Positions 47,336-47,853 of a stretch of 64,000 nucleotides of DNA are shown one piece after another; position 1 is the first letter of the stretch; every line of letters begins with the position of its first letter. A program made the translations under genes and the position numbers. The notes below the pieces were generated by a model, which saw only the letters and a list, made by a program, of their open reading frames with translations, was not told the DNA's origin and did not search any database. The DNA is from a phage. Location of the stretch: assembly GCA_025830695.1 (NCBI GenBank), contig GCA_025830695.1_4111.1. One strand, written 5' to 3'.

Positions 47336-47344
47336 TAAAAAAAG

Positions 47345-47372
47345 CTTGACTAAATAGTTCAGTACTGTATAA
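47345..47372 (+). promoter_or_regulatory. sigma70-like promoter, cassette CTTGACTAAATAGTTCAGTACTG
   Basis: TTGACT (47345-47350), 16 nt containing TTCAGTACTG, TATAAT (47367-47372). Confidence 0.7.
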
Positions 47373-47404
47373 TGTTTGTATCTTAACTTATATGGCAACT
47401 TGAT

Positions 47405-47758
47405 ATGTTTAGTGAATATGAAGAAGCAATAAAACGCAACCTTGAAGATTACAACTTCCAATTTTATATTTGGGATGAACTGATGAGATTGTGTTTACAG
47501 TGGATGGAAAATGGAGAAACTCCTGACCAACGAACTGTTATATTAAACATTTTGTTACATAAAGATCTTAGTTCAATTAATGTTGAAGTTTCTACTTATG
47601 TAGAAGAAGATTATAATCCCTATATTTCATATACTTCACCTGTACCAAAGACAGAAGAAGAATATTTTCAAATGAGTACTGTACAAGAACCATTGTTCAC
47701 TTATGAGTTCTATAAGTACTTGGTTGGTGAATTCAAAAAAATGCGAATTAATTCTTGA
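47405..47758 (+). CDS. EE-x-FFQ-x-S family paralog
   Basis: C-terminal PKTEEEYFQMSTVQEPLFTYEFYKYLV. Confidence 0.7.
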   Translation: MFSEYEEAIKRNLEDYNFQFYIWDELMRLCLQWMENGETPDQRTVILNILLHKDLSSINVEVSTYVEEDYNPYISYTSPVPKTEEEYFQMSTVQEPLFTYEFYKYLVGEFKKMRINS

Positions 47759-47784
47759 CTAAATAATTCAGTACTGAGGATATT
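47755..47784 (+). promoter_or_regulatory. Second copy of the promoter cassette (weak -10)
   Basis: TTGACT (47755-47760) + AAATAATTCAGTACTGA. The best -10 is GATATT (47779-47784). Confidence 0.4.
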
Positions 47785-47824
47785 AATATGTTTAAAGATG
47801 AACGTCCAGATTTGTAAAAAGTAC

Positions 47825-47853
47825 TTGACTAAATAGTTCAGTACTGATATAAT
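47825..47853 (+). promoter_or_regulatory. Third copy of the promoter cassette
   Basis: TTGACT (47825-47830), 17 nt AAATAGTTCAGTACTGA, TATAAT (47848-47853). Confidence 0.7.

Follow-up and report, generated by a model that had tools for sequence, protein, structure and literature searches.

A repeated promoter-like cassette of an Asteriusvirus jumbo phage holds a local copy of AGTACT, a selected palindrome iterated across the genomes of its clade

The DNA considered here is a 64,000-nucleotide stretch (the window) of contig GCA_025830695.1_4111.1 from GenBank assembly GCA_025830695.1, and our subject is a short cassette with the anatomy of a promoter, found in four copies (one of them diverged) within 1.3 kb, together with the palindrome AGTACT that it holds between its -35 and -10 hexamers. 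The window belongs to an Asteriusvirus (PBECO4/121Q-like) jumbo phage: megablast of positions 46000–50600 returned 75 phage records, the best matches being Asteriusvirus BAU.Micro_ELP-22 (ELP-22), PBECO4, CMSTMSU, and 121Q relatives at 95–97% identity with patchy coverage. It aligns in reverse to PBECO4 258006..194874, with the first 43.8 kb at 99.6%; nearly all of its genes are on the plus strand, and open reading frames (ORFs) make up 91.5% of it. The region around the cassettes is a tRNA-rich mosaic, with tRNA genes at 45550, 46652, 48621, 48865, 48948, and 50958, and the cassettes lie amid ORFans, tRNA genes, and one noncoding RNA (ncRNA).

The 23-nt sequence CTTGACTAAATARTTCAGTACTG has exactly three matches, at 47345–47367, 47754–47776, and 47824–47846, where none is expected from 100 shuffles; an initial annotation, made from the sequence by a model, had reported these copies, and its only correction concerns the first, which it placed one nucleotide too early, at 47344–47366. 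Copy 1 (47345..47373, plus strand) is a complete promoter in layout, with a -35 TTGACT at 47346–47351, a 16-nt spacer in which AGTACT (47361–47366) begins 9 nt past the -35, and TATAAT at 47368–47373; it has 11 of 12 consensus matches and is predicted to drive the ORF at 47405–47758. Copy 3 (47820..47853, plus strand), also with 11 of 12 matches, contains two sites: AGTACT at 47840–47845 lies in a 17-nt spacer between TTGACT (47825–47830) and TATAAT (47848–47853), the latter preceded by a canonical TGn (TGa), and an extra AGTACT at 47820–47825 abuts and overlaps the -35, 20 bp start to start from the first. Both TATAAT hexamers had been called in the initial annotation, as had the poorer condition of copy 2 (47754..47787, plus strand), a recombinant hybrid. 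Its -35 (47755–47760) includes the TGA stop (47756–47758) of ORF 47405–47758, its AGTACT is at 47770–47775, and a good -10 is absent, the sole candidate being GATATT at an 18-nt spacer (9 of 12 matches). The fourth, diverged cassette (48586..48614, plus strand) reads TGGACA-atagttttcAGTGCTga-TATAAT and differs by the change to TGGACA, one inserted T, and AGTGCT (48601–48606, at N9) in place of the palindrome, with TGaTATAAT retained (TATAAT at 48609–48614) and 11 of 12 consensus matches. It ends 7 nt upstream of tRNA-Ser(GCU) (48621–48710), of which it is the predicted promoter, and is intact, with AGTACT, in PBECO4 and ph0011.

Copies 1, 3, and 4 adjoin an ORF, a conserved ncRNA, and a tRNA gene, respectively, and have A-tracts upstream, as in sigma70-like early promoters with an AT-rich upstream region. 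These features bear out the initial description of the cassettes as sigma70-type promoters, and on this anatomy the copies are very probably promoters. The three copies and the decayed fourth may belong to a promoter family of RaK2/121Q-type jumbo phages that is portable, early, and of the sigma70 type; its members would serve small ORFan genes, tRNA genes, and a small stable RNA within a hyperplastic region.

The genes and RNAs next to the cassettes are varied. The predicted transcript from copy 3 is an ORF-less conserved RNA of ~190 nt (47855..48045, plus strand) that matches no Rfam family; it has 85–93% identity to unannotated sequence of T4-like Bragavirus phages (PM2, SdyM_006) and a T5-like Novosibvirus, located there exactly between two tRNA genes, and 81% identity in RaK2; one hairpin is swapped for a different one, and a compensatory change affects one base pair. 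A second noncoding module of ~160 nt (48050..48205, plus strand) follows, ends in a T-run, and is found on its own in other phages. Between copies 2 and 3, a Shine-Dalgarno-like AGGA (AAGGAG) precedes a nine-codon mini-ORF, MFKDERPDL (47788..47817, plus strand), which is kept in PBECO4 and ELP-22 and may encode a leader peptide or be a remnant. Just upstream of copy 1 are three tandem 54-codon ORFs with overlapping ends (46849–47013, 47010–47174, and 47171–47335); the tandem has two members in PBECO4 and ELP-22 and three in ph0011, indicating a copy-number-variable gene. Farther upstream, directly after tRNA-Ser(UGA), the segment 46746–46824 has an Rfam tRNA score of 32.6 bits, barely over the gathering score, and no ARAGORN call; the ph0011 annotation at the corresponding place is tRNA-Arg.

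Comparison of cassette positions among related genomes, a check proposed in the initial annotation, yielded 2 to 5 copies among 49 records, with breakpoints at the cassette itself. ELP-22 has four copies, of which copies 2 and 3 enclose a tRNA-Gly gene and a 59-amino-acid ORF that the window lacks. The two blocks in which the window aligns to ELP-22 (47247–47776 and 47747–48715) overlap by 30 bp, exactly the cassette, and the extra ELP-22 module measures 279 bp. At the same place, ph0011, with five copies in total, has a different module of 281 bp containing a 79-amino-acid ORF. Copy 2 of the window is a chimera joining the left variant of ELP-22 copy 2 (aataAttc) to the right flank of ELP-22 copy 3. 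These breakpoints and the hybrid copy favor the earlier suggestion that the cassette is a substrate for recombination, a role that we consider very likely; because the copies have 23 to 40 identical bases, homologous recombination could insert, delete, and swap the modules that they flank. A scan of IMG/VR for the cassette matched one contig.

In this respect the cassette resembles the promoter-early stem-loop (PeSL) cassettes of T4-type phages (Arbiol et al. 2010, PMC2839356; Comeau et al. 2014, PMC4122927). Both are repeated early promoters of sigma70 consensus with an AT-rich upstream region, both are concentrated in hyperplastic regions where they flank small ORFan modules, and in both the breakpoints of indels and replacements between close relatives fall inside the cassette and leave chimeric cassettes; furthermore, one PeSL subclass has an inverted repeat between -35 and -10. 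The inverted repeat here, however, is short and AT-rich rather than a G/C-rich terminator stem, and the stem-loop character is weak: the arms of copy 3 form an imperfect inverted repeat (-8.9 kcal/mol, z -2.7), whereas copy 1 folds no better than shuffles (-3.5 kcal/mol, z +0.4), and neither copy has a G/C tract or a T-run. The present carrier also differs, being a 350-kb Asteriusvirus and a distant relative of T4, and the core of the repeat is a word iterated ~890 times per genome.

The spacer palindrome is one local copy of a genome-wide, clade-wide iterated word and not a local operator, which the initial annotation had not foreseen. With 133 occurrences in the window where 16 are expected (z = 29), AGTACT is the most over-represented hexamer there, and CAGTACTG occurs 25 times against 0.7 expected. 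The 133 sites are dispersed over positions 1..64000, with 120 inside ORFs in all three reading frames (57, 23, and 40). Synonymous-codon shuffling (300 shuffles) gave 30 ± 5 AGTACT sites with a maximum of 46, about fourfold fewer than the 120 observed, and 57 of the 109 Ser-Thr dipeptides in the window are spelled AGT-ACT. Since the excess extends to all frames and exceeds that of synonymous shuffles, the word is selected at the nucleic acid level; synonymous and codon-order shuffles together rule out a codon or dipeptide artefact as its cause. The flanks of AGTACT in the window are symmetric, with C at -1 and G at +6, and TTC-AGT is the half-site seen most often in four genome samples, giving a full 12-bp consensus, TTCAGTACTGAA, that is the exact form found in the cassettes and at intergenic sites. 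Other palindromes fare differently: 27 of the 64 palindromic hexamers are wholly absent from the window, nearly all of them with at least four G/C. Examples are GGATCC, CTGCAG, and CCATGG, with 5–8 expected of each, and their absence makes the 8-fold excess of AGTACT more striking.

The enrichment extends well beyond the window. Whole PBECO4 has 891 AGTACT sites against 100 expected (z = 79), at 12–67 per 10 kb across the genome, with a twofold higher density in noncoding DNA (4.6/kb) than in coding DNA (2.4/kb). Samples of RaK2 (114 against 11 expected), GAP32 (114 against 14), and the Xanthomonas phage XbC2 (64 against 8.6) are similarly enriched; in five genome samples AGTACT is the top hexamer, 8- to 10-fold over the composition expectation, and in RaK2/121Q/GAP32-type phages it recurs every ~400 bp, ~40 times more densely than in the Escherichia coli sample. 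The hosts of the enriched phages (E. coli, Klebsiella, Cronobacter, and Xanthomonas) show that the enrichment is host independent. It was absent from the more distant PA5oct (1 site against 8.8 expected), from 50 kb of ECGD1, a Justusliebigvirus annotated as an enterobacterial/coli phage (0 sites), and from 50 kb of E. coli K-12 (3 sites). Individual sites are also retained between genera. Orthologs of PBECO4 and RaK2 have 69% nucleotide identity and 22 of 56 sites in common, compared with 0.13 sites expected under independence and ~6 under simple decay (0.69^6), and 22 of 29 are retained where the amino acids are identical; between PBECO4 and GAP32, 13 of 55 sites are common, and 11 of 14 at identical amino acids. 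That AGTACT is a selected, clade-wide iterated palindrome is, in our judgment, close to certain. The palindrome in the cassette spacers would then be a local, near-consensus form (TTCAGTACTGAA) of a word selected ~890 times per genome, whatever the host.

One part of PBECO4 stands out as a separate observation. The interval 148.6–153.7 kb of NC_027364.1 (loci L011/L012) holds 12 of the 47 TCAGTACTGA sites of that genome and 6 of its 15 perfect TTCAGTACTGAA sites, and it includes a 2-kb gap without annotated coding sequence (151.7–153.7 kb) and G+C-richer, structured-looking segments between the sites. RNA genes may be clustered here, or the interval may serve as an origin or as a further set of binding sites.

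The closest parallel to such a word is HIP1 (GCGATCGC), the highly iterated palindrome of cyanobacteria (Elhai 2015, PMC4390886). Each is a short palindrome, many-fold over-represented, present in genes in all frames, kept across relatives, and of unsettled function. They differ in sequence and organism, AGTACT being iterated in a virus that strongly avoids other palindromes, and AGTACT additionally has a fixed place in promoters. A mutational drive of the very-short-patch-repair type is not indicated, because the one-mismatch neighbors of AGTACT, including its deamination product AGTATT, are not depleted.

Alternatively, the word may be linked to methylation in the manner of HIP1, with AGTACT or its GTAC as the target of a phage methyltransferase that marks phage DNA and tunes promoters. 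The window encodes a C5-cytosine methyltransferase (35811–36668, 286 amino acids, with a short target-recognition region), the only clade-conserved reader candidate examined, which is kept across the enriched clade (75% identity in GAP32, 76% in CBB, 77% in XbC2, and 64% in RaK2); no Pseudomonas phage is among the matches listed for it at E ≤ 1e-60 (10 of 17 organism names), and a phage-type Dam is present as well. ScaI/Eco255I-type restriction enzymes occur in E. coli, and so frequent a word would be a liability to restriction unless protected; ECGD1 avoids AGTACT completely. However, the nearest solved relatives of the enzyme are the catalytic domains of eukaryotic DNMT3, which are CpG methylases, and AGTACT contains no CpG; ECGD1 carries a 51%-identical homolog despite having no AGTACT; and the state of the one-mismatch neighbors offers no repair signature. 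RaK2 DNA was reported from bisulfite sequencing to be CpG methylated (PMC3622015). Neither the names of homologs nor the PDB matches link the enzyme to AGTACT. A specificity of the enzyme for AGTACT is thus not supported, the HIP1-orphan methyltransferase link has no supported counterpart here, and the methylation explanation as a whole is improbable.

Longer forms of the palindrome lie downstream of the cassettes, at the positions given in the initial annotation. The 14-bp perfect palindrome ATTCAGTACTGAAT (50384..50397) and the 16-bp perfect palindrome TATTCAGTACTGAATA (50504..50519) share a noncoding stretch, TCAGTACTGA at 52307..52316 overlaps the TGA stop of ORF 52032–52316, and a second TCAGTACTGA (52342–52351) occupies the 25-nt loop of an intrinsic terminator (52330..52385, plus strand), a strong one (-17.2 kcal/mol, z -4.1) in which an 11-bp stem (52330–52340 with 52366–52376) is followed by a T-run. 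Both long palindromes fall within ~275 nt without an ORF (50365–50640), which also contains a T-arm-like GGTTGTGATTCCC, lies upstream of a perfect promoter (50638–50665), and may hold degenerate tRNA or small-RNA genes. A signal acting in transcripts, as a hairpin or processing site, would suit the tRNA- and ncRNA-rich setting of the long versions and the one in the terminator loop, and a palindrome is present in RNA from either strand. Yet the copies in promoters precede the point where transcription is predicted to start, the 14- and 16-nt palindromes show no folding advantage over shuffles (z -0.7 and -1.5), the 12-mer is unfolded, and the symmetric flanks point to recognition of duplex DNA. 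We rejected a hairpin role on the folding results and regard an RNA-level signal in general as highly improbable.

Within promoters, AGTACT has a fixed position. Among the 122 PBECO4 sequences with at most one mismatch to TTGACA-N16-18-TATAAT, 21 carry AGTACT at -7 (13) or -8 (8) from the -10 hexamer, where chance predicts ~0.3 per offset. In both spacer classes the word begins 9 nt after the -35; those 9 nt are variable, while AGTACTG is conserved as strongly as the -35 and -10 hexamers, so that the word-bearing promoters have the layout [AGTAC]TTGACA-N9-AGTACTG-N0-1-TATAAT. The same spacing recurs in RaK2, where AGTACT lies exactly N9 after the -35 in 17 of 31 promoters of the early region and also at N9 in tRNA promoters with another -35 (TTGAAC). 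Furthermore, the distribution of distances between sites peaks sharply at 20 bp, a spacing found in 26 pairs where ~4 are expected, and the second AGTAC(T) often abuts the 5' edge of the -35. Late (TATAAATA) and TGAAACG promoters showed no positional association with the word.

Such a layout might be read by polymerase itself. In this explanation, AGTACTG is a cis promoter element recognized by the host sigma70 holoenzyme, a phage-modified polymerase, or a phage sigma70-like factor, there is no separate repressor, and the genomic enrichment is unrelated. The word is at a fixed distance from the -35 and abuts the -10, its conservation equals that of both hexamers, its TG forms the canonical TGn of an extended -10 in the 17-nt-spacer class, and the phage encodes a sigma70-family protein (62318–63283; Sigma70_r3 match, with which the annotation agrees). 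The resemblance to an extended -10 is, however, partial. In copies 3 and 4 the TG is at -15/-14, one base upstream of TATAAT, whereas in copy 1 and the whole 16-nt-spacer class it abuts TATAAT and is one base off register. Only the TG has a known polymerase contact; the upstream AGTAC is outside the extended -10, and we know of no recognized polymerase contact for it. In addition, 101 of the 122 strong promoters do without the word, and its palindromy, symmetric flanks, and second copy bracketing the -35 fit a dimeric binder better. We consider a polymerase-read element unlikely.

The reading that we prefer for the promoter copies is that the spacer AGTACT is the operator of a dimeric repressor, the best single mechanism but one that we put forward only tentatively. 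As with other promoter-core operators, the sites are dyad symmetric, fall in the spacer from -35 to -10, and in some cases form pairs spaced by about two helical turns. AGTACT spans -20 to -15 in copy 3 and -19 to -14 in copy 1; because the site overlaps the RNA polymerase footprint, its occupancy, often together with that of a second site 20 bp upstream so that the -35 is bracketed, would shut the early promoters off. The initial annotation had proposed an operator from the geometry of a palindrome within a spacer. That idea has gained from the fixed N9 position in two genera and the frequent second site, and has lost from the TG that doubles as an extended -10 and from the search for a binder described below.

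Several observations weigh against an operator. In copies 3 and 4 an extended -10 is formed by the 3'-terminal TG of the palindrome, and part of the conservation therefore needs no repressor. Only ~5% of AGTACT sites are promoter linked, and with ~95% elsewhere a promoter role cannot account for the enrichment. In a 49-kb region of GAP32, none of 9 strong promoters has AGTACT at N9, and the word is still enriched. Many AGTACTG promoters are paralogous copies and so are not fully independent observations, and the fourth cassette of the window has lost the word with the remainder of its promoter intact. The last four observations would also suit AGTACT as a passenger, present in the cassettes through a common ancestor in a genome saturated with the word for a reason other than transcription, such as compaction, self-marking, replication, or defence. 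A passenger, however, would be scattered over the spacer, whereas the position is fixed to one base in at least 8–10 sub-families with differing spacers in two genera, and the 20-bp peak of pairs is specific; this explanation, too, appears unlikely.

Also to be counted against an operator is the outcome of the search for its reader. No candidate for a cognate DNA-binding protein emerged among neighbors, in homolog searches, or in a Pfam scan, a search that was not exhaustive. The ten ORFs neighboring the cassettes gave no Pfam family, the best 25 families listed for the 117 ORFs of the window include no small DNA-binding regulator, and the HTH_19 protein encoded beside the sigma gene of GAP32 has no homolog in PBECO4. 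We found no transcription data for these phages in the accessible literature, nor any description of AGTACT enrichment or of this promoter layout in them.

A host protein was considered as well. SlmA, a nucleoid-occlusion factor, binds a sequence (SBS) with the consensus GTGAGTACTCAC, whose six central bases are AGTACT (PMC3020112), and phage DNA that mimicked such sites could block division of the host cell. SlmA requires G, T, and a purine as the first three bases (PMC3020112), whereas the preferred phage flank is TTC; GTRAGYRCTYAC has no match in the window or in the RaK2, GAP32, and PBECO4 samples, and GAGTACTC occurs once as against 25 occurrences of CAGTACTG. Moreover, a Xanthomonas phage is enriched too, and an SlmA sequence used as the query found no homolog in PBECO4, a negative that also bears on the operator reading. 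Shared central bases notwithstanding, SlmA-site mimicry is largely refuted, and we give it only a very slight chance.

For the repressor reading, the most economical arrangement is probably that one dimeric protein reads all AGTACT sites. From the enrichment in phages of Enterobacterales and Xanthomonas and its absence from PA5oct, we infer that this protein is probably phage encoded; its binding to AGTACT, its phage origin, and repression upon binding are each plausible. In a wider form of this proposal, possible though doubtful, a phage-encoded dimeric protein would read AGTACT to distinguish phage DNA from that of the host or to organize it and would double as a repressor of early promoters through the sites that bracket the -35. 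Phage proteins that bind DNA genome-wide and also silence early promoters are known, namely, p6 of phi29 and TF1 of SPO1. The proposed reader would resemble them as an abundant phage protein with many genomic sites that represses early promoters; in contrast, neither p6 nor TF1 recognizes a sharply defined hexamer, and for AGTACT no protein has been found.

In sum, phages normally purge short palindromes and so escape restriction, and a clade in which one palindrome stays at nine times the chance level must gain something substantial from it. AGTACT is maintained within genes even though this constrains the choice of codons, is kept between genera, and is placed with base-exact precision in early promoters. 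The consensus TTCAGTACTGAA provides a defined bait for a regulator or genome-marking protein of jumbo phages, and the promoter layout offers a simple consensus for annotating their early promoters. The behavior of the cassette suggests that PeSL-like, promoter-mediated module shuffling works outside the T4 family too. More broadly, these results bear on the long-standing question of the purpose of highly iterated palindromes, and a dimeric phage reader of AGTACT, if real, would make this word a viral counterpart of such palindromes with a tractable function.

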